The position numbers and the translations under genes are program-made. Shown piece after piece: positions 3,473 through 30,329 of a stretch of DNA of 64,000 nt. The stretch lies in NCBI GenBank assembly GCA_964016885.1, contig OZ024740.1, positions 14,198,001 through 14,262,000 of the forward strand, written 5' to 3'. Below the pieces are notes generated by a model. It worked only from the letters and a program-made list of their open reading frames with translations, did not search any database and was not told where the DNA came from. This DNA is from Eledone cirrhosa (taxonomy: Eukaryota). Within the stretch, counting starts at the first letter, position 1, and every line of letters starts with the position of its first letter.

Positions 3473-3990
<518 letters not shown>

Positions 3991-4479
3991 GGAAATGATG
4001 GACACTCGTTTACAATGGTGAAAAAATCAACAAAAGTAAAGAGAAAAAACGCTTATTAGGTTATTTTAAAACAAAATAAAAGAAATATGATATTATCTCC
4101 TTATAATATATAACCAGCAATTTCTCTGCCTGTCTGTCCGACAGTGGAAACACGTGCGCGCGTGCGAATGTTTTTTGCGCACGCGTAGAGAGAGAGTGAG
4201 AGTGAAAGAAAGAGACAGACTACGAGAGGGGGATAGTGGGCGGGAGAGAGGGAGAGAGAGAGAGTAAATAGACGCTAAAACACGTGCGTGCGTGCGAATG
4301 TTTTTTGCGCACGCGTAGAGAGAGAGTGAGAGTGAAAGAAAGAGACAGACTACAAGAGGAGGATAGCGGGAGGGAGAGAGGGGAGAATTGAGGAGTGCTA
4401 CAGAAACATATATACATTTCTGTGTGTGTGTAATATATATATATATACACACAGAAATATATATACATTTCTGTGTGTG

Positions 4480-7266: not shown

Positions 7267-7317
7267 AGATTCTACAGGACTAGAACTGTTTCATTCATTA
7301 GAAATCATCAGGAATCT
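7267..7317 (-). ncRNA. Type I hammerhead ribozyme (3' pLTR of the Naiad-like PLE)
   Basis: The minus strand reads AGAUUC-CUGAUGA-U-UUC-UAAU-GAA-U-GAA-ACAG-UUCUAGUC-CUGU-A-GAAUCU. Stems I, II and III and the core are intact, with a GUA cleavage triplet. Confidence 0.85.
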
Positions 7318-10960: not shown

Positions 10961-13102
10961 TTAGCCATCGGGCTTTAACACTGGCTTAAAGTGTTTGAAA
11001 GTTGCAAAGTTCTTGTGCATGCAGTTCGGGCAGTGTTCAGAGAGTTTGTTCAGTAGCGGGCCCTTGGCGAATAAAATTTCGTAGCTCTCTGAAATACAAA
11101 GGTCGCAGCCCTTGTGTCCTCCGTTGTAAGAGCGCGCTTTCTGGAGTATTTTCCAATTAAGCGTGAAGGGGGTGGAGTTCCTTTTGAGGTCCCAAACGTA
11201 GGAGGCGAGTGTTGTCTGATTTGCTTTATCTGGTCTTCTGAAGGAGTGGGTATGGGCATACCAACGGGTCTTAAAGTTGTTGGAGGTCATGCCGATGTAA
11301 GTTTTTTTGCAATCCTCGGTGCCTGAGATGACATCGCATTTGTATACGATGTCATTTGTGAGGCATTTGTTTTCAAGTGGGCATGCTTCCTTATTTAGGC
11401 AATTACATAGAGCCCCAGTCCGGGGATTGGTTTCGGAGGTGGTTGGCTTATTTAGTTTAGAATTGTGGTTGGCTATATTCCTAGCTAGGTTAGGTGTGGT
11501 GGAGTAAGACAGTCTTATAGTGTTCTTATTAAAGATGGTGTAGTACCTATGTTGTATGGGGAAGTGTAATTTCAGTAAAGTGAAGAAAATCCTAGCTATC
11601 GGAGTAGATACCTCTCTATTGAAGGGAGGGTTGTACCAGCTAATCTGCCTATGTCTATTCCTCCTCTGCAATCTTGCGGTGGTTTCTAGGTAAGTTATCT
11701 TATCTTTAAATCCGCTACGGGCCAGGGCGTCATTGTAGTAGGAGGCAGATGCATTAAAAATATCTTTGTTGGCGGAGAGGCCAGATATTCTAATAGAGAC
11801 GCTTTTTACTAGGTTATCAGTAATGTTTTGGGGGTGGTTTGAATTAACATTAATATATTTAAGGGACTCGTTAGGTTTGTGGTACGGGTAATAGAGGGAA
11901 GTATCTAGGTCGAGAGTGACATCTAAGAAGTTGGCCCTAGTCAAATTAGAATCTATAGTTATACTAAATCCTAGATTAGAGAAGAAAGAGCTTAAGTTTT
12001 TCCGAAACCCATCGGTGGTTCTGGGGCTAACCTTATGCAGGGAGAAGAGGCCGTCGTCTCGGTATAAACCTCCCGTTAGGCCGGTAAAGAGGTTCTTCAG
12101 GTTATGTAGGATGTACAGGCCCACAAGGTCGCTAATTTCAGCCGAGTCACTCGCCCCCATGCTAACGTCAAATGGGGTCTGAGATTTCTTGTTGATCCAG
12201 TAAGATCCATCGTGGTATAGAAAGGTCTTACGAGCGTGGAGGATAATAACTTGCTCAGCATCGGTAATGGTGGTAAAATTCCTGGCAAAGTTAATTGCGT
12301 CCTTCAGGAGGGGCTCCGAGATAGAGGCATAGTAGTTTTCTATGTCGAGTTGCAGGAAGCGAGTGTGGTGTTTATCGGGTAATTCTTGGAACCATGATAT
12401 TGCCTCAGATGTTCTACTCCAGAGTGGAAGTGGTGAGGCTGCCCGCAATGATGGTAGAACTCTATCCAGGATCTTCTTACTGATAGAGCCGATGTCAGAA
12501 CGAGTGGGGTTGATAAGTCTGACTGATGGTTTGTTGAGGAAATTTCCCTTATGGTCCTTCAGGGTAAAGTGCGGGGTCTTTACCCTTAAAGGTTCGGTTC
12601 GGTCATGTAATTTAAGGGACTTGACGATTTCTTTTCCGGCCGCGTTTGTCTCAGTCAGTGCCCTCTCTATTACCTTTTTGTAGGTGGTCGTGATGGTATT
12701 TTTTGCCAGCTTATTGTAGGTCTGTGGGTCTACCTCATAAACGTTTTTGGTTTTATCGGAGGAGACATAAAGATTAGGGGATTTTTTTATATTCCGTAAT
12801 TCGGCATTTAAGTAGGCCTGGAATGGTGTGGTGGCTCTACGGAATTTAATATCCTTGATCATCTTGAAGAGGTCTTCTTCAAATGGTTGGAGTAGGCTGT
12901 TGGTGGGTGGTGTCTTATTCGTTTTGAAGCCGAACTTCTCATCATTGGTAGATGCTACATCAGGGTTGTCGAGGAAGAAGGCCCTCCATCTAATTCGCTT
13001 GATGAACTCGTCGGTACGTCTGATGAGTGTTTTTAAGTATAGTTTCCTTGGAGGGATAGGGATGTTCTTCAAGGAAATATCAAGGTCGAGTTTGGTCAGC
13101 AT
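10961..13102 (-). CDS. PLE polyprotein: reverse transcriptase plus C-terminal GIY-YIG endonuclease (Naiad-like), uninterrupted
   Basis: RT motifs LQLDIENYY, VSMGASDSAEISDLVG, LYRDDG, NFLDVTL, YHKPN and SNHP. Linker CNCLNKEACPL (CxCx5C), nuclease DIVYKC...TYIGMT...FKTRW...H, and CDLC. The frame is open from 13198 and the first ATG is at 13102. Confidence 0.92.
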   Translation of the reverse strand: MLTKLDLDISLKNIPIPPRKLYLKTLIRRTDEFIKRIRWRAFFLDNPDVASTNDEKFGFKTNKTPPTNSLLQPFEEDLFKMIKDIKFRRATTPFQAYLNAELRNIKKSPNLYVSSDKTKNVYEVDPQTYNKLAKNTITTTYKKVIERALTETNAAGKEIVKSLKLHDRTEPLRVKTPHFTLKDHKGNFLNKPSVRLINPTRSDIGSISKKILDRVLPSLRAASPLPLWSRTSEAISWFQELPDKHHTRFLQLDIENYYASISEPLLKDAINFARNFTTITDAEQVIILHARKTFLYHDGSYWINKKSQTPFDVSMGASDSAEISDLVGLYILHNLKNLFTGLTGGLYRDDGLFSLHKVSPRTTDGFRKNLSSFFSNLGFSITIDSNLTRANFLDVTLDLDTSLYYPYHKPNESLKYINVNSNHPQNITDNLVKSVSIRISGLSANKDIFNASASYYNDALARSGFKDKITYLETTARLQRRNRHRQISWYNPPFNREVSTPIARIFFTLLKLHFPIQHRYYTIFNKNTIRLSYSTTPNLARNIANHNSKLNKPTTSETNPRTGALCNCLNKEACPLENKCLTNDIVYKCDVISGTEDCKKTYIGMTSNNFKTRWYAHTHSFRRPDKANQTTLASYVWDLKRNSTPFTLNWKILQKARSYNGGHKGCDLCISESYEILFAKGPLLNKLSEHCPNCMHKNFATFKHFKPVLKPDG

Positions 13103-13232
13103 GGTTTCTTGATGATGGTTATAAGGGGCACAGAGAGTGCTAAAATGTACGTTATTCCGGGTTGAATCGGAGGTAACCACAGTAAGTAAGGTACTCAATA
13201 CATAGCAGAGTATAAAAGTTTTAATATAGATG

Positions 13233-13283
13233 AGATTCTACAGGACTAGAACTGTTTCATTCATTAGAAATCATCAGGAATCT
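13233..13283 (-). ncRNA. Type I hammerhead ribozyme (5' pLTR of the Naiad-like PLE)
   Basis: Identical to 7267-7317. Confidence 0.85.
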
Positions 13284-18791: not shown

Positions 18792-19480
18792 AATATGGTT
18801 TTATAAATATAGTTTTCCATTTATTTAATATTGTAAATATACTCCAAATATTTGTCGAGTGCTTTTATATCAGTTATAAATATTTACTAGTTGTAACCCA
18901 ACAATTTTAAATATAACTTTCCATATATATATATATATATATTAAGACAGGGGGGAAGAAAAAATGGCTTCACTTGTGCTTTCAACAAATTTATTTTCTT
19001 CACAAAATCCAAAAAGAATTTTTCTTAAAAAAAATTATTTTATAAATTAAGTTGTTGGTTGTTGGTTAGGTCTTAGGAGTTCTTGGTTAACGTAGGAGGT
19101 ATTGTTTCGTTTTTAGAAAGACGCTGAGGTGCGCTTGTCAAACTGATGTGTATGTGGTGTGTTGTTCTATATATAGGGATTTAACATGTCTGTGGTGTGG
19201 TGGGGGTTTCTTTTCTCCCCCTTTAATAAGTGCATGGGTGTAGGTGTGTTGAAAAAGTGTTCATAACAGTAATGAGTTGAGACGGTGAGTAGGGTTGGGC
19301 GGGGAGAAATGTAGCAAGTGCGGCCTGCCCCGGTCATTCTCGAAAAATTCCTTTATTCAGGGGAAAAACCTTTTAGTATTGCTTTTGTGTTGAGAATGGT
19401 CACAGGCAAATCGCACCTGTCAAGTTTGTGAATAATTATTTTTTTCTTTTTTTCCTGAAGAATTTTTCTACGTCCATCCC

Positions 19481-20331
19481 TGACACACACCAATACTTAA
19501 ATTTCCGGTCAGCACACCCCTCACATACGAAAAGGAACATTCCCTTCAACATGGCAAGGCGCATCTGCACTATAGCAACACACCCCGTACTACAAGAAAA
19601 AAGATTATGTGACCTGAAAAAATTCCTTAAAAAACAAGAATATCCGATGAAACTCATCAACGCAGCCATCTCCAAGGCTAAGAACATCCCAATAACAACA
19701 CTGAGAAAACCAAACCCACAACATAAAAAAGAAAACCCTGCTATCTCTTTTGTCATCACTCACAGCCCAGGGAACATCAACATTGTGAAAACTGCTAAGC
19801 AGTATATCCCGATTCTACAGCAATCTACCAAAATGAATGCACTCTTAAAAAATAATTTATAGCAGACGCCAAGCACCCAACCTTAAAAAACTAATTACCA
19901 AGGCAAAATTTACGACCAACATGGAATCAATGCAAGTGACGAAATGCGGGGACCCTAGATGTGGAACCTGTGAACTCATCGAAGCGGGCAAACAGTTGTC
20001 CTTCAAAAACCATGATAATTTCAAGGTCAATGCTAACATGAACTGCAAAACGAAAAACCTAATATATTGCGCAACATGTCCACAGTGTAAAGAGTATTAC
20101 ATTGGGGAAACGGGAACGGGATTACATGATAAAGTCCGGGTACATAAACAACAAATTAAAGACCCCACAGTCAGAAATACCACATGTAGCGCACACTTTG
20201 CATCATGCGGGAAGGGAAAATTCACAATCTTCCCTTTCTTCAAGATATGGTCGGATAACGAACATTTCCGCAGATATAAAGAAGAACTCTTCATTGAAAA
20301 ATTTAAACCACTACTGAACACGAAAAAATGA
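19481..20331 (+). pseudogene. PLE RT C-terminus plus GIY-YIG endonuclease, truncated and frameshifted near 19860
   Basis: DTHQYLNFRSAHPSHTKRNIPFNMARRICTI...QEYP, then in the next frame SRRQAPNLKKLI...CGDPRCGTC...NLIYCATCPQCKEYYIGETG. Confidence 0.9.
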
Positions 20332-23468: not shown

Positions 23469-24062
<594 letters not shown>

Positions 24063-24321: not shown

Positions 24322-24415
24322 TCATAATATATGAATATGTGTTTGTTTGTTATAGAAGATCCGCATAAGTTGAAACAATTGTTCTCGGTATGGTGAACTA
24401 ACTGTTGTGTTACTA

Positions 24416-24460
<45 letters not shown>

Positions 24461-24666
24461 GAAGTAGTAGTAGTAACACATGTTAGTAGAACAACTGTTT
24501 CATTTTATTCGGATCCTCAGCGCGGTCTGAATGGAGCTGATGATCCGACTAAGGTGAAACAATTGTTCTCGGTATGATGAACTAACTATTGTGGAACTAC
24601 TTCTACCAAACTCGTCTCATGCACTGAATGCTCTACTACTACGGATATAAGCCTCCAGCGTTCTAC

Positions 24667-24779
<113 letters not shown>

Positions 24780-25277
24780 TAAACGGAATAGAAAATGCTG
24801 ACAAATTGTTCACAGTTGAAAAATGGTTTAATTAGGAATAAAAGAGTATTAGTGATTGTATGGGTTAGTATTCAGTTGTGGTTTTAAGTTTTTAAGTTTT
24901 TACCGGTTGCGCATTTCTAAATGCTTTTCAAAAATAATTTTGAGATAGAGTGTCCGTGTTGTTTGCTCTGATCTGATTAGTTTTGGGAATTCTACCTGTT
25001 TTTATGTTAAAAAAGTGGCTCCAGCGTTATTTTTGTGTTGCAAAAATGCTTGTGGTCAAAACAATTTTGATTGGTCGGTAGAGGTCATGTGAATGTAAAA
25101 AGTTGATTTTGCGCCAAGACCGTTTTATGTTAAAATGTTAAAAAAGTGGCTCCAGCAAAAATTCTTGGTCAAAACAATTTTGATTGGTCGGTAGAGGTCA
25201 TGTGGATAAAAAATTGGTTTTGCGCCAAGATTGAGAAATGACTCTTTCACAACAAATATGTGTGTGTGTGTGTGTGT

Positions 25278-25339
<62 letters not shown>

Positions 25340-25405
25340 TAGTAGTAAGGTGTTCGATGCTGCGACAATGGCCAGCAGCGATGTGTGTCAAATGGCTATT
25401 AAGAT

Positions 25406-25458
<53 letters not shown>

Positions 25459-25916
25459 GCAGAGTCATTCGAAGGTCAAAAGATATTTCTCAGCTTTTGT
25501 CTTATACGGAGAAGTGCGTGTGTGTGTGTGTGTGTATAAGTCTCTTTGTATGTTGATGTACGCGTGTGTATGTGTTTGTGTATATATGTGTGGGTGGACC
25601 AGTATTTTTTCCCCCTGGTAAAATGGTGTACATTATTCGATTTTTTCAGTAAAATCGGTTCTCTTAATAGAACATCAAAAATCTTAACAATAAAAGGTGT
25701 GAAATGATATTCACTATATATATATACACACATACATATATTCACTACATATATATATATATATATACACATATATACATACATATATATGCACATATAT
25801 TTTTTTTATTGCACCATAGATCATGTGTGTTTACGTGTGTCATTGTGTTTATATGTGGGTAGAGATGTGTGCTGATGTAGGTATGTAAGTTGACGTGTGT
25901 ATGTTGTGGGTTCGTC

Positions 25917-28242
25917 TTAGGGAGAAGTGTTTAGACGGGGTCCGTATTTGTTAATGAAGTAAGATTCCTTGCTGATGCGCTGGGTGTGGGTGGCATTATC
26001 TTTAAATTTGTAGATGGGAAAGATTCTGAAGTTGGGATGATTTTGGGCGGCACAGGTATCAATGTGTTCACTCAGTGGTATTTTCCTGTATTCCCGTATT
26101 TTAATTTGGGATCTATGGACAGTCATGCGTTGGCGGAGGCTGTTTTTGGTCTGGCCTATGTATTGTTCTCGACAACCTGAACAAGTTAATACATATATTA
26201 GATTTTCCGATGCACATGTGAAATTGTGTTTTACTATAAAACGTTGTCCATCTTTGAAATAGAATTCCGAACCCTCTATTAGGTTGATGCAAATGCCACA
26301 GTTGGGTCTATCGCATTTTTTTTACTGTGGGTTTCGTTGTTGTGGTTGGCAGCACTTTGGCATGTGTTAGGATGTTTTTCATTGATTTAGATTGTCTTTT
26401 GCTCTTTATGATATCGTGTGTTCGTAGAATTTGGTTCATTCTATGGTCCTTTTTCAATACAGGGATGTTCTGGAGGATGGTGTCAAAGGCCTCATTGTTG
26501 AGGGGGTTGTGTGTGGAGATGTATGGAAGAGCTTTTAGTTTTGGTTGATTTACTTTAGGGTGTCTAAGGTCCTGGGTACTGAGTTTTAGGGCACGTTGGA
26601 TTCCATTGTCAATTAGTGATGCAGGGTAGTCCCTGCCTATGAGTGTGTCCTTTAGTTCTTGTAGCCGTAAGTAGCAGATGTTTTTATTGGAGACTATAGT
26701 ACAGATTCTCTTGGCTAAGTTGTAGGGAATATTAATTTTAACGTGTCTAGGGTGGCAAGAGTTGAAGGGGAGGTATTGCTTGGAGTCTGTGGGCTTGTAG
26801 TATATGTCTGTTTCTATTTTTTTGTTATGAATCTTAATGAGGATGTCGAGGAAGGGGAGTTGTTGATGGCTGTATTCCATCGTGATGTTAATATTTGTGT
26901 TGAGCCCATTTATAAGGGTGTGAAATTCTTTAAGTTTTTCGATGTTTTCGTGCCAAAGGATGAAGCAGTCATCTAGATATCGCTTCCAGTTCCTTTCAAT
27001 GTGTAAGTGGAGGGTGTTTCCAAATTTGTTTAGGACTTTAGTGTAGAGGGTGATTTCCAGGTATCCCATGACTAGGTTGGCATAAGTAGGGGCTGTTTTC
27101 GTTCCCATAGCGGTCCCATATTTCTGCCTGTAAGGTTTGTTATTGAAAACGAAGTAATTGTTCTCCAAGATAAATTTGAGTCCCTCTATCACGAATTCTT
27201 TTTTGATGCGTTGTGGGAGTTCATTGTGGAAATTATCCAGCCAGAATTGGATAGCTTCTATTCCTAGGTTGTGGGGGATGTTGGAGTATAGGTTGACTAC
27301 ATCGAACGTCACTAGTAGGGTTTGTTCAGAAAGTGGCATATTAGGGAGGTGGTTGAGCATATCTAGGTCGTCCCTTATATAGCTTTTGATGTGCTTGAGG
27401 AAGGGTTTGAGAAGGGTATCAATGAAGTTGCTAAGACGGTGCGTTTCGCAAGCGGGGCCTGCTATTATAGGTCTTAATTTGAGATCATTGGGTGAGGGGA
27501 CATTGATGACTATGTCTGTGGCTTCCTTGCATGCCTTACTGATTGATTCGCTTTTATGTACTTTAGGGATACCGTAGAAAAGGCTGGATTTACTTGTGAA
27601 GTCTGTGATGAAGCTGAATTCCTTGTTAGTGAGTCCTTCTTTGTATTGGTTGATTAGAGTTTTTAGGTTTCTCATAATTTTCTGTTGATTGTAGTGTTCA
27701 GCCTTTTCGTAGTATGTTTCGTTTTCCAAAGTGGAGAGCACTAAGTTGATATAGAATTCTGTCTCCATTAGGACTACTGTACTCCCTTTATCAGCCTCTT
27801 TAATTGTAATGGTTCTGTCGGTTTTTAATCTATTTAATTCTTCCCATTCTTTCTTGTTGAGGTTTGGCTTGTGTTTTTGTCTGTGCAAGTGTTGGTAAGG
27901 GAAGTTTGTGATGTGTTCACAGAATTCGTCCAGGATTTTATTTCTACCTTTTGAAGGGGTGTAATTGCTTCTATTTCTGGCTAATGATTCATCCTCATTG
28001 TACTGGTCGAATAGTTGTTCACTAAGTCGTAACTTTCTACAGAAGTCTGTGATGTCTTCCTTCATTTCATAGTAGTTAGGACGTAGTGGGGTCGGTGTGA
28101 ATTTAAGACCTTTGGAGAGTAAGTTGATAAGGTTGGGTGTTGGTTCTGCACTAGTAAGATTGATAATTTTTATTACTATCGGTTTCTCCTCCCTGTCTTG
28201 TGTTATTTTGTTTGCCTGTATCTGTGTGCTGTGTCTAAAAAA
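25917..28242 (-). CDS. PLE RT plus GIY-YIG endonuclease (Neptune-like), with one 1-nt frameshift in a T8 run at 26316-26323
   Basis: Upstream of the annotated Met the frame reads IINLTS...LLSKGLKFTPTP. Then ADKG, FYGIPKVHK, LRPII, FDVVNLYSNIPH, GTAMG, RYLDD, FLD and YYKPTD. After removing one A it continues KCDRPNCGIC...NLIYVLTCSGCREQYIGQT...RMTVH to the stop at 25917. Confidence 0.9.
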
Positions 28243-29513
28243 TGGTTGGGGTAGAGGGGTTGTCTGCTGATGTTAAGTGGTCTCCTGTGTTTGTTATATT
28301 CCTTGTTGTTGTAAAATGTGGTTCGGGTTGGTGGTTGTAGATTGAATGGGGTGTTCCTGTACTGCGAGTATGGGTGTGTGTTTCTATGTGCCATGTTGTA
28401 TTGTGGTGTTATAAGTGGCCTACGTTGTTGGTTGTATCGTGTGGTGTGGGTTTGTTGTGTATTGTGGAAGTGAGAGTTGAGAAAATGGTAATTACCTTGC
28501 TGTCCCCTTGAAGCGGGGAAGTTGTTGCATCTATCATGGCGGTGGTATCTTTTCCCTATGTTTGACGATGAGGAATCCGCGTAGTAGTTGAGTGATTTGG
28601 TATGGTGTCTCCTTGAAGGGGGAAAGTTGTAAATGTCATTCTGAGGGAGATGATTTCTTGGGTTTTTGTTCCTTCTTATGGTAGCGAGGTTGGGAAGTTC
28701 ATCTTCGGTGTGGTGCTTCCTTCTTCGTTTGTTTGAGGCTTGGGGGTTTGAGAAGTTGTTGTGCGGTTCAGTTATGGGTTTTCCTATTTTTATGAACGGG
28801 TTATTGGAGGTGTAATCCGTTTGAAAAGTCGATTCATAGTGTAGGAACCAAGCGGCACTTTTTTCCCAGCGTTGAAGGGATTTCAGTTCTTCTCTGTTGC
28901 AGTCCCCTTTCCATAATTTGGAGATCTTCTCTACCTTGGGGCCTTCAGTTTTGTTGTTGATTTCCAGGAGGATCTCTTCATCGATGGTTTTGATTTTTTC
29001 CTCATTTGTCTGGGCCCTCAGTTTAAGAAGTTCAATTTCTGTCTTCATTTTTTCCAATGCCATTCTTTCCCTAAGGTGTCTTTGAGGTTCGGGTTCATTT
29101 GGAATGGACTTTATTTGTAGTTTACGGGGGAGAGTTAGAGGGGTTGAGTTAAGCCATTTTTCATATATCTCTGCTTTGTTGTGATTTTGTATCATCTTCC
29201 AGAATGAGAACTTTGTGTCTCTGAGGGATTTGTTGCATTTTGGAATTGTTCGAATTTTCATTTTGTGTGAATCAATCTCACATGGTTCTTCGTTGGTTTT
29301 TCCTGTGTCGGTAGTAGTGAACATAGTTTGGATAGTATCGCAAAGGTTTTGGAGTTTGTCGCCGATTTCGGAGGGTTTGTATCCGGTGGTGGTTTCCTTA
29401 TTTGTGGAGTCAAGTTTGTCGACCAGCAAAGATAGGTTGGTGTTGATTTTCTTGAGTTCCTGTAGGATCTCTTCATTTGAGTTGATGAGGGTTGTATCCG
29501 TTTTTGTTGGCAT
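28203..29513 (-). CDS. ORF1 of the PLE: coiled-coil N-terminal half and N/Q/H/Y/R-rich low-complexity C-terminal half, function unknown
   Basis: About 436 aa open frame (first ATG at 29513) inside the pLTRs and upstream of RT. Heptad-like segments EEILQELKKINTNLSLLVDKL and ALEKMKTEIELLKLRAQTNEEKIKTID. Confidence 0.8.
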   Translation of the reverse strand: MPTKTDTTLINSNEEILQELKKINTNLSLLVDKLDSTNKETTTGYKPSEIGDKLQNLCDTIQTMFTTTDTGKTNEEPCEIDSHKMKIRTIPKCNKSLRDTKFSFWKMIQNHNKAEIYEKWLNSTPLTLPRKLQIKSIPNEPEPQRHLRERMALEKMKTEIELLKLRAQTNEEKIKTIDEEILLEINNKTEGPKVEKISKLWKGDCNREELKSLQRWEKSAAWFLHYESTFQTDYTSNNPFIKIGKPITEPHNNFSNPQASNKRRRKHHTEDELPNLATIRRNKNPRNHLPQNDIYNFPPSRRHHTKSLNYYADSSSSNIGKRYHRHDRCNNFPASRGQQGNYHFLNSHFHNTQQTHTTRYNQQRRPLITPQYNMAHRNTHPYSQYRNTPFNLQPPTRTTFYNNKEYNKHRRPLNISRQPLYPNHFLDTAHRYRQTK

Positions 29514-30078
29514 TTTCTGTATCTCGTGTGAGGATATGATAGTTAAAAGAATAGAGGTGTAACACACAAGTTATTATATATTGGTAAACGGAATAGAAAA
29601 TGCTGACAAATTGTTCACAGTTGAAAAATGGTTTAATTAGGAATAAAAGAGTATTAGTGATTGTATGGGTTAGTATTCAGTTGTGGTTTTAAGTTTTTAA
29701 GTTTTTACCGGTTGCGCATTTCTAAATGCTTTTCAAAAATAATTTTGAGATAGAGTGTCCGTGCTGTTTGCTCTGATCTGATTAGTTTTGGGAATTCTAC
29801 CTGTTTTTATGTTAAAAAAGTGGCTCCAGCGTTATTTTTGTGTTGCAAAAATGCTTGTGGTCAAAACAATTTTGATTGGTCGGTAGAGGTCATGTGAATG
29901 TAAAAAGTTGATTTTGCGCCAAGACTGTTTTTATGTTAAAATGTTAAAAAAAGTGGCTCCAGCAAAAATTCTTAGTCAAAACAATTTTGATTGGTCGGTA
30001 GAGGTCATGTGGATAAAAAATTGGTTTTGCGCCAAGATTGAGAAATGACTCTTTCACAACAAATATGTGTGTGTGTGT

Positions 30079-30192
<114 letters not shown>

Positions 30193-30329
30193 TAGTAGTA
30201 GTAAGGTGTTCGATATATATATATATATATATATAGAAAGAGAGAGAGAGAGTATATATATTATATATACACACATATTACCTGTTCCAGCAGGCTGGAT
30301 GAGGCCATGCTGGGGTACCGTCTATATTG

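Follow-up and report, generated by a model that had tools for sequence, protein, structure and literature searches.

Within a stretch of 64,000 nucleotides (nt) of Eledone cirrhosa DNA (contig OZ024740.1 of assembly GCA_964016885.1, positions 14,198,001 to 14,262,000 of the forward strand; hereafter the window), a Penelope-like element (PLE) on the minus strand carries a gene, open reading frame 1 (ORF1), ahead of its reverse transcriptase (RT). ORF1 is a member of a conserved, unannotated family of Neptune-type PLEs. A programmed −1 frameshift at the heptamer U_UUU_UUA, which would join ORF1 to the RT, is likely on the strength of the sequence. The reading as a whole, in which ORF1 is the upstream gene of a two-frame, gag-pol-like Neptune-type PLE, is fairly probable. 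An earlier note on this DNA, which had described ORF1, overlooked the conserved −1 slippery site that would couple it to the RT.

The following features form the junction, with positions counted from the first letter of the window.

28203–29513, minus strand: ORF1, 436 amino acids (aa), ATG at 29513 and TAA at 28205–28203; an open reading frame with 489 relatives.
28236–28242, minus strand: in-phase slippery heptamer U_UUU_UUA, codons CAT TTT TTA GAC, the predicted −1 frameshift site, from sequence and family conservation.
28203–28205, minus strand: ORF1 stop codon, exactly 30 nt (10 codons) from the heptamer, as read from the sequence.
26308–28272, minus strand: RT reading frame, 654 aa from stop to stop, −1 relative to ORF1, recognised by RVT_1 and N-terminal motifs.

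A chance ORF was rejected for the 436 codons of ORF1. Across 2000 base shuffles of its 1311 nt, the longest stop-free run had a median of 89 and a maximum of 216 codons, and the other two frames of the stretch contain 15 and 27 stops. The intact ORF of about 436 aa that the earlier note had placed between the pseudo-long terminal repeat (pLTR) and the RT is present with all the motifs quoted. It does lie there, but besides preceding the RT it shares 70 nt (28272–28203) with the −1 RT frame. ORF1 ends with CAT TTT TTA GAC, nine further codons and TAA, and the −1 frame at the junction reads FFR...KIINLT...KGLKFTPTP. The first AUG of the RT frame, at 28065, is downstream of the conserved IINL and KGLKF motifs. 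The heptamer is the sole run of at least five T within ORF1, and it is an in-phase X_XXY_YYZ sequence inside the overlap of the 0 and −1 frames, the pattern by which −1 frameshift signals are recognised. It is also the heptamer of HIV-1 gag-pol.

The site is conserved in the family. In a full HMMER scan of 50%-identity representatives, 489 ORF1 relatives reached E 0.001 or better. Counts of ORF1 relatives given here refer to the best 150 of these 489 unless otherwise filtered; tail counts refer to the 79 of the 150 with at least 100 aa beyond the core, or to 81 or 68 sequences under other filters. Phe-Leu, as encoded by TTT TTA, occurs in the last 45 aa of 60 of the 79 full-tail relatives, in a tail that is otherwise unalignable. 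The controls gave far lower counts: a mean of 4.1 and a maximum of 11 in 1000 shuffles, 4 for Leu-Phe, and 1 for Phe-Leu in the preceding interval. Under a length filter instead, 56 of 68 relatives have Phe-Leu. The commonest peptide at the site is FLG (27 of 60), and the codon after Phe-Leu starts with G in 48 of 60 (background 19%). None of the 60 relatives has W, M, K, E or Q just before Phe-Leu (background 21%), which fits a preceding codon that ends in U. The distance from heptamer to stop, which places the ORF1 stop of the window at the eleventh codon (+11), is exactly 10 codons in 19 of 60 relatives and never fewer; under another filter, the exact spacing is found in 20 of 56. In two ORF1 relatives, P0157 and P0192, Phe-Arg stands in the place of the Phe-Leu of their closest relatives; the recoding signal may have changed there.

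Genomic loci and protein records connect ORF1 with the RT. An RT alignment, used to scan contigs of public genomes, yielded 45 loci (L001–L045). They carry animal-type PLE RTs, are located in bacterial genome bins of GTDB, and are probably host-animal DNA contaminating these bins. In L002, an ORF1 homologue (E 1.5e-43, one internal stop) lies immediately 5' of an intact 771-aa RT–endonuclease (RT-EN) chain in the −1 frame. This frame opens a single codon ahead of the in-phase heptamer T_TTT_TTG, and its first Met is residue 140. A single-copy indel artefact at the ORF1/RT junction was rejected, as L002 shows the same −1 offset. Among the close relatives (38% or more), L002 alone has a substantial stretch of DNA ahead of the RT. 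The other close loci are truncated within the RT or at its edge, and the remaining loci are distant or decayed. L014, a distant PLE with 31% identity, carries an in-phase T_TTT_TTA G at 3776, and its RT frame opens 7 codons ahead of this site. Its upstream DNA is rearranged and without an ORF1 match, and a hairpin lies downstream of its heptamer (3755–4022, plus strand). The L014 site suggests that the frameshift may extend beyond the ORF1 family. In the decayed PLE L015 (3790–3810, plus strand), a short T run stands in the same −1 relation to the RT frame, which opens just behind it; this run is possibly the remnant of a slippery site.

Among the proteins, the ORF1 profile matches 3 of 110 RT relatives; with the RT profile, 1 of 151 ORF1 relatives is matched. 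Four records are ORF1–RT fusions, three of them from annotated or apparently spliced gene models; the fused record P0067 carries FFR in the RT frame. For the ORF1 relative P0117 and the RT relative P0004, a single −1 overlap of 11 codons could encode both; no other such pair exists among 71 × 65, and the best +1-frame control reached 5 codons. Seven RT relatives, two of them near duplicates and two picked by eye, have FFx 36–44 aa before GLKF, and all seven have I/L/V and then an A/G codon where the +11 stop would fall. FFx is present in 5 of the 17 RT relatives with leaders of at least 45 aa. The start was called at or after IINLS in 30 of 88 RT relatives, and more than 100 aa lie upstream of the RT in only 4 of the 88. 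The link between ORF1 and a PLE RT proposed earlier therefore holds in the window, in L002, in the four fused records and in the one dual-coded pair.

The ORF1 product can be divided as follows.

29316–29483, minus strand: N-terminal heptad helices, aa 11–66, a predicted coiled coil, from AlphaFold2 and periodicity.
28815–29288, minus strand: conserved three-helix core, aa 76–233, with an IxPRKF-type loop and conserved Trp, from alignment and AlphaFold2.
28710–28730, minus strand: basic patch KRRRKHH, aa 262–268, a possible nuclear localisation signal (NLS); a similar patch occurs in 20 of 68 relatives.
28206–28715, minus strand: basic disordered tail rich in N/R/H/P/Y/Q, aa 267–436, from composition and AlphaFold2.

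AlphaFold2 predicts helices at aa 11–42, 47–66, 76–122, 142–188 and 192–233. The predicted local distance difference test (pLDDT) score is at least 90 over about aa 91–240, averages 87 over aa 1–250 and is mostly below 50 from aa 267. A 3.5-residue periodicity is found family-wide for aa 11–40 and 48–66, where it was reached by 0 of 2000 permutations for either helix. It is marginal for aa 142–188 (p 0.06) and absent in the other two helices of the Trp-bearing core. The helical, Trp-containing coiled coil of the earlier note is thus retained as to its predicted helices, but clear heptads are confined to aa 11–40 and 48–66 and do not include the Trp-bearing helices. The conserved core residues are W105, Y117, W120, P129, E140, R148, D178, W201, E209, S212 and W216.

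The composition of aa 266–436 (N 14%, R 12%, H 9%, P 9%, T 9%, Y 8%, Q 7%) agrees with the N/Q/H/Y/R/P-rich tail of about 170 aa described before, as does the low pLDDT. With N+Q at 20% and R+K at 17%, by composition only, the tail of the window copy is a basic disordered region and not a typical low-charge prion domain. The same applies to the 81 full-tail relatives, in which the tail is disordered in 80, net positive in all 81, and has a median of 22% N+Q and 18% R+K. Predicted disorder is thus shared across the family, and the label "prion-like" has lost most of its force. The oligomerisation and condensate formation put forward in the earlier note are conjectural. The NLS is similarly weakened by the scarcity of comparable patches in the relatives.

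Domain and fold searches gave little, in agreement with the earlier statement that ORF1 has no recognisable domain. ORF1 has no family match in Pfam, and no Pfam family was matched by more than one of 135 aligned members. A PDB sequence-profile search returned generic coiled coils only, the best (E 8e-5) to a designed one. Foldseek, which the earlier note had recommended, was run with the ORF1 model but gave nothing at E 0.001 or better in the PDB and viral sets. In a wide fold search with VIA-align, the best hits were generic three-helix bundles (Z 8.5, root-mean-square deviation 6.2 over 124 residues), a score below the level trusted for helical models, with residues 1–73 barely covered. The ESM Atlas contained no usable ORF1 match, and a tblastn search of phages found none. 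None of these searches implies a new fold. Within the family, all but one of the best 150 relatives are at most 473 aa long, and 149 of the 150 stop before any RT. Octopus bimaculoides supplies the sole named ORF1 relative, and a profile word-search with ORF1 matched three proteins. The family of 489 clusters is a candidate for a new Pfam entry.

The gag-pol-like arrangement would operate as follows. Most ribosomes would stop at the end of ORF1 and produce an abundant, likely RNA-binding, helical protein, whereas a minority would slip one base back at U_UUU_UUA and produce an ORF1–RT–endonuclease fusion. The ORF1 protein (ORF1p) would self-associate through its heptad helices, its Arg-rich tail would coat the element RNA, and the fused RT-EN would be recruited into the particle in cis, as by Gag and Gag-Pol. 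This sequence of self-association, RNA coating and recruitment in cis, which is drawn by analogy, is slightly favoured. A role of ORF1p like that of the LINE-1 (L1) ORF1p or Gag is plausible on the same grounds.

Several observations weigh against a programmed frameshift. The heptamer of L002 ends in G and is non-canonical, and an ORF1 homologue is present in only 1 of the 45 fetched loci. No hairpin or pseudoknot is predicted after the heptamer of the window (0 kcal/mol over 40 nt, z 0.08 over 63 nt), and the hairpins downstream of the heptamer are modest in L002 (z −1.5) and L014 (z −0.75). Phe-Leu is missing in 19 of the 79 relatives, three of which have Phe-Phe instead, and 12 of the 17 RT relatives with leaders of at least 45 aa have no FF in the stretch examined. 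The cases with a +11 stop are concentrated in one 38-row fork of a quick ORF1 tree (19 of 20; Shimodaira–Hasegawa-like approximate likelihood ratio test, SH-aLRT, 91), so these counts, coming largely from one clade, are not independent. The window copy also has one other frame break, which means that indels do occur in this copy of the element.

The RT might instead be translated independently, with TTTTTTAG acting as a 3' splice acceptor (for example, to the donor at 29800 in the pLTR) or as a termination–reinitiation tether. Its start codon, AUG or near-cognate, would then lie some 30 nt further on, at the ORF1 stop. This alternative is unlikely. Some of the family data agree with it. Met followed by a G-starting codon opens 25 of 39 short-leader RT relatives (background 26%), and four ORF1 relatives with Trp at +11, the nearest to the window in the tree, allow A-UGG in the RT frame; the P0117/P0004 pair confirms Met at the Trp +11 position. 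Neither a stop nor Trp, however, stands at +11 in 38 of 81 relatives, and both the window and L002 are without an RT-frame AUG before the first motif. The G that follows the heptamer in 48 of 60 relatives also agrees with an independent start, although this +4 G bias is confounded by dual coding and near-duplicate rows, and a non-G codon follows Phe-Leu in 12 of the 60. A splice acceptor would need no fixed ORF1 phase, yet Phe-Leu dominates. In L002, no AG comes right after the T run; the first AG is 12 nt further on, and the next AUGs are out of frame. The longer-intron isoform of Chlamys-3, which leads to a truncated protein according to the available part of PMC8557442, favours independent translation. 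Frameshifting and an independent RT start may coexist in part of the family.

The frameshift may also be real and ORF1p be a scaffold, a nuclear-import factor or a chromatin-targeting factor and not an RNA chaperone, which is quite improbable. The core helices are near neutral in charge, no RNA-binding domain was recognised in ORF1, and a CCHC zinc knuckle is found in 0 of 68 ORF1 relatives and not in the ORF1 of the window. By contrast, all 81 tails carry a net positive charge, and a structural, RNA-coating role would fit the position and stoichiometry, which are Gag-like. Fusion by slippage of the polymerase on the T6 run, adding an extra U to some transcripts, has very little probability. 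The homopolymer run and the lack of a predicted downstream RNA structure in the window copy suit it, but it would work in any phase, yet the X_XXY_YYZ phase is kept across the family and at three DNA loci.

The most improbable alternative, now largely refuted, is one long ORF, as in canonical endonuclease-bearing PLEs, from which a one-base mutation or assembly error cut off ORF1: the same copy does contain a non-programmed A8 break, single-ORF PLEs with long N termini do exist (L008, 1005 aa) and ORF1 and RT are fused in four protein records, but 149 of the best 150 ORF1 relatives end without an RT, an upstream part longer than 100 aa is found in only 4 of 88 RT relatives, L002 has the identical −1 offset, three of the fused records are annotated or apparently spliced models, P0067 has FFR in the RT frame, and a search for long (764–2180 aa) fused relatives found none, which is weak evidence. 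The single-ORF PLE L008 (188–3205, plus strand) has a different N-terminal domain with an H..L..C..KG motif, and L011 (1–582, plus strand) contains a PLE N-terminal domain of the same type. The ORF1 profile matched these two N-terminal extensions with a probability of 0.2% each, so no homology was detected, at low sensitivity. By eye, the helix-loop-helix-helix order of this domain looks like that of the ORF1 core.

If the frameshift is accepted, its stimulation has to be considered, because the window copy is without a predicted downstream structure. According to the available portions of PMC7784341 and PMC9661723, ribosomes that collide are spaced by 30 or 33 nt and gather at stop codons, and the 10-codon stop spacing matches this distance. 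A ribosome terminating at +11 would hold a trailing one, with UUA in its A site, 33 nt back. A ribosome terminating 11 codons ahead is therefore proposed as a roadblock that would stimulate the shift, a tentative and rather doubtful idea. The fork with the +11 stops has long terminal branches, and the residues between heptamer and stop are not conserved in it. In SARS-CoV-2, the position of the stop affects −1 frameshifting, but the route proposed in the accessible text of PMC8168617, pseudoknot refolding, is a different one.

With retroviral and other LTR gag-pol systems, the element shares the heptamer (that of HIV-1), the −1 logic and a structural ORF before the enzymatic ORF, but it has no CCHC knuckle, protease or integrase, and no stem-loop stimulator is predicted in the window copy. 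With the LINE-1 ORF1p, it shares an upstream non-enzymatic ORF, N-terminal coiled-coil-like helices and basic disordered sequence. L1 ORF1p has an RNA recognition motif and a C-terminal domain, whereas the AlphaFold2 model of ORF1 is all-helical; L1 ORF2 is not known to be made by frameshift. Athena/Terminon elements reportedly have a frameshifted coiled-coil ORF1 with a T6A site (Arkhipova et al. 2017). Their trait of a coiled-coil ORF1 upstream of the RT is present here, as the predicted heptad helices of aa 11–66. The element differs from them by its GIY-YIG endonuclease and by the lack of a predicted pseudoknot after the window heptamer, weak candidates being found in L002 and L014 only. 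The arrangement would work like gag-pol, yet it is neither Gag (no knuckle) nor Athena (endonuclease present).

Canonical endonuclease-bearing PLEs are described as single-ORF elements in the available text of PMC8557442 and PMC11167929. The present element differs by a separate 436-aa ORF1 overlapping the RT in the −1 frame, and the window, L002 and 149 of the best 150 relatives all depart from the single-ORF plan. Chlamys-2 and -5_cBra likewise have a separate ORF upstream of an endonuclease-bearing PLE, but that ORF has a Gag-like zinc knuckle and the endonuclease of the element is N-terminal, as stated in part of PMC8557442. The legend of Fig. 1 in Craig et al. 2021 (PMC8557442) lists a PLE ORF1 that is separable by a frameshift with pseudoknot and has a coiled coil and an NLS. 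An upstream helical ORF1, a basic patch and a probable −1 shift at T6A into a PLE RT are shared with this ORF1 type and with the Athena type. The undescribed PLE subgroup suspected earlier accordingly stands as a subgroup of Neptune-type elements marked by ORF1, but its novelty is lower than was implied, given that legend. ORF1 is not described in the available parts of PMC6431247, PMC3846280, PMC5408684, PMC11167929, PMC5718144, PMC10294476 and PMC7544508. A search of the open literature found no account of ORF1 or of a slippery site in Neptune elements; subscription papers and Repbase are outside that scope, and priority is uncertain.

The remaining parts of the element are as follows.

29572–30214 (ends approximate), minus strand: upstream pLTR, a copy of the 3' end of the element, from repeat comparison.
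29517–29800, minus strand: predicted intron of the 5' untranslated region (UTR) across the pLTR/body boundary, CAG/GTAGAA ... ACAG/AAAATG, deduced from the sequence.
25917–26321, minus strand: C-terminal Cx4CxxC linker and GIY-YIG endonuclease with CCHH (GIY-YIG E 8.8e-8, Pfam).
26316–26323, minus strand: A8 run offsetting the RT and endonuclease frames, from comparison with relatives.
24767–25916, minus strand: 3' UTR ending in the downstream pLTR copy (about 25358–24767) and abutting (TA)n, from repeat comparison.

The element is set in a microsatellite-rich animal genome. Its minus-strand order is pLTR, ORF1, RT frame, GIY-YIG frame and 3' UTR with the second pLTR copy, and (TA)n adjoins both ends. 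Pseudo-LTRs from partial tandem insertion are present, as in endonuclease-bearing PLEs. The upstream pLTR contains a (CA)n tract and an internal duplication of about 113 bp. Outside the microsatellite, the two pLTRs agree at 489 of 492 aligned positions, which marks the insertion as young. Splicing of the predicted intron (donor 29800, acceptor 29517) would delete the sole AUG (29719) between the donor and ORF1. A 5'-UTR intron in the same arrangement is reported for Penelope and Chlamys-3 in the available text of PMC8557442.

The RT frame matches RVT_1 with E 9.8e-7, slightly below the Pfam cut-off, and has the PLE-type N-terminal motifs and DKG. Its nearest named relative is from Octopus sinensis (67% identity). 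In common with Neptune PLEs, the element has the RT, the Cx4CxxC linker and GIY-YIG with CCHH, partial-tandem pLTRs and (TA)n flanks. The Cx2-5CxxC RT-EN linker KKCDRPNCGICINL has the long spacer of Neptune, unlike Nematis, and, by eye, linker and endonuclease are similar to the rows that Fig. S2 of Craig 2021 gives for Neptune. By this likeness, the element resembles a Neptune-type PLE. A programmed event at the RT/EN break was rejected: the A8 break is a lesion or an assembly error, because RT and EN form a single chain in 62 of 70 long relatives, and in L002 too. A search of the element with Rfam and for the CTGANGA..GAAA core found no canonical hammerhead, though non-canonical forms may escape it; in L002 and other relatives, a hammerhead core sits after the RT-EN stop.

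Other repeats share the window. A second, unrelated PLE at 10961–13237 (minus strand) has an open 758-aa RT–GIY-YIG frame with about 21% identity to Neptune-type RTs. A hammerhead-like core at 13255–13277 lies just upstream of it and recurs at 7289–7311. A fragment at 19377–20331 (plus strand), 5'-truncated and frameshifted, belongs to a related Neptune-type element (thumb, linker, GIY-YIG). At 23566–24061, inverted arms of 144 bp, 95% complementary and 208 nt apart, resemble a miniature inverted-repeat transposable element and enclose a hammerhead-like core (23720–23743). Beside the (TA)n flank of the element, 24355–24605 holds hammerhead-like cores at 24498–24520 (minus strand) and 24537–24559 (plus strand) and a 67-bp direct repeat, and is probably another small PLE-derived insertion. 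The right 27 kb of the window (36967–64000) is filled by a satellite array with a unit of 58 bp, about 466 copies and 94% matches.

Endonuclease-bearing PLEs are usually described as single-ORF elements without a structural protein. A conserved ORF1 with a retrovirus-type slippery site is a candidate route to ribonucleoprotein building and enzyme dosage in one lineage of them. Gene callers split elements of this kind and lose ORF1, and recombinant work on them would need the ORF1–RT fusion. The fixed 10-codon gap without RNA structure raises the testable question of whether a terminating ribosome is a natural −1 stimulator. On the boldest view, for which the odds are poor, a widespread marine-invertebrate Neptune lineage is gag-pol-like, with an undescribed all-helical protein, and one branch of it shifts without RNA structure by means of a terminating ribosome. 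If this is true, termination and ribosome load would set the ratio of ORF1 to RT.

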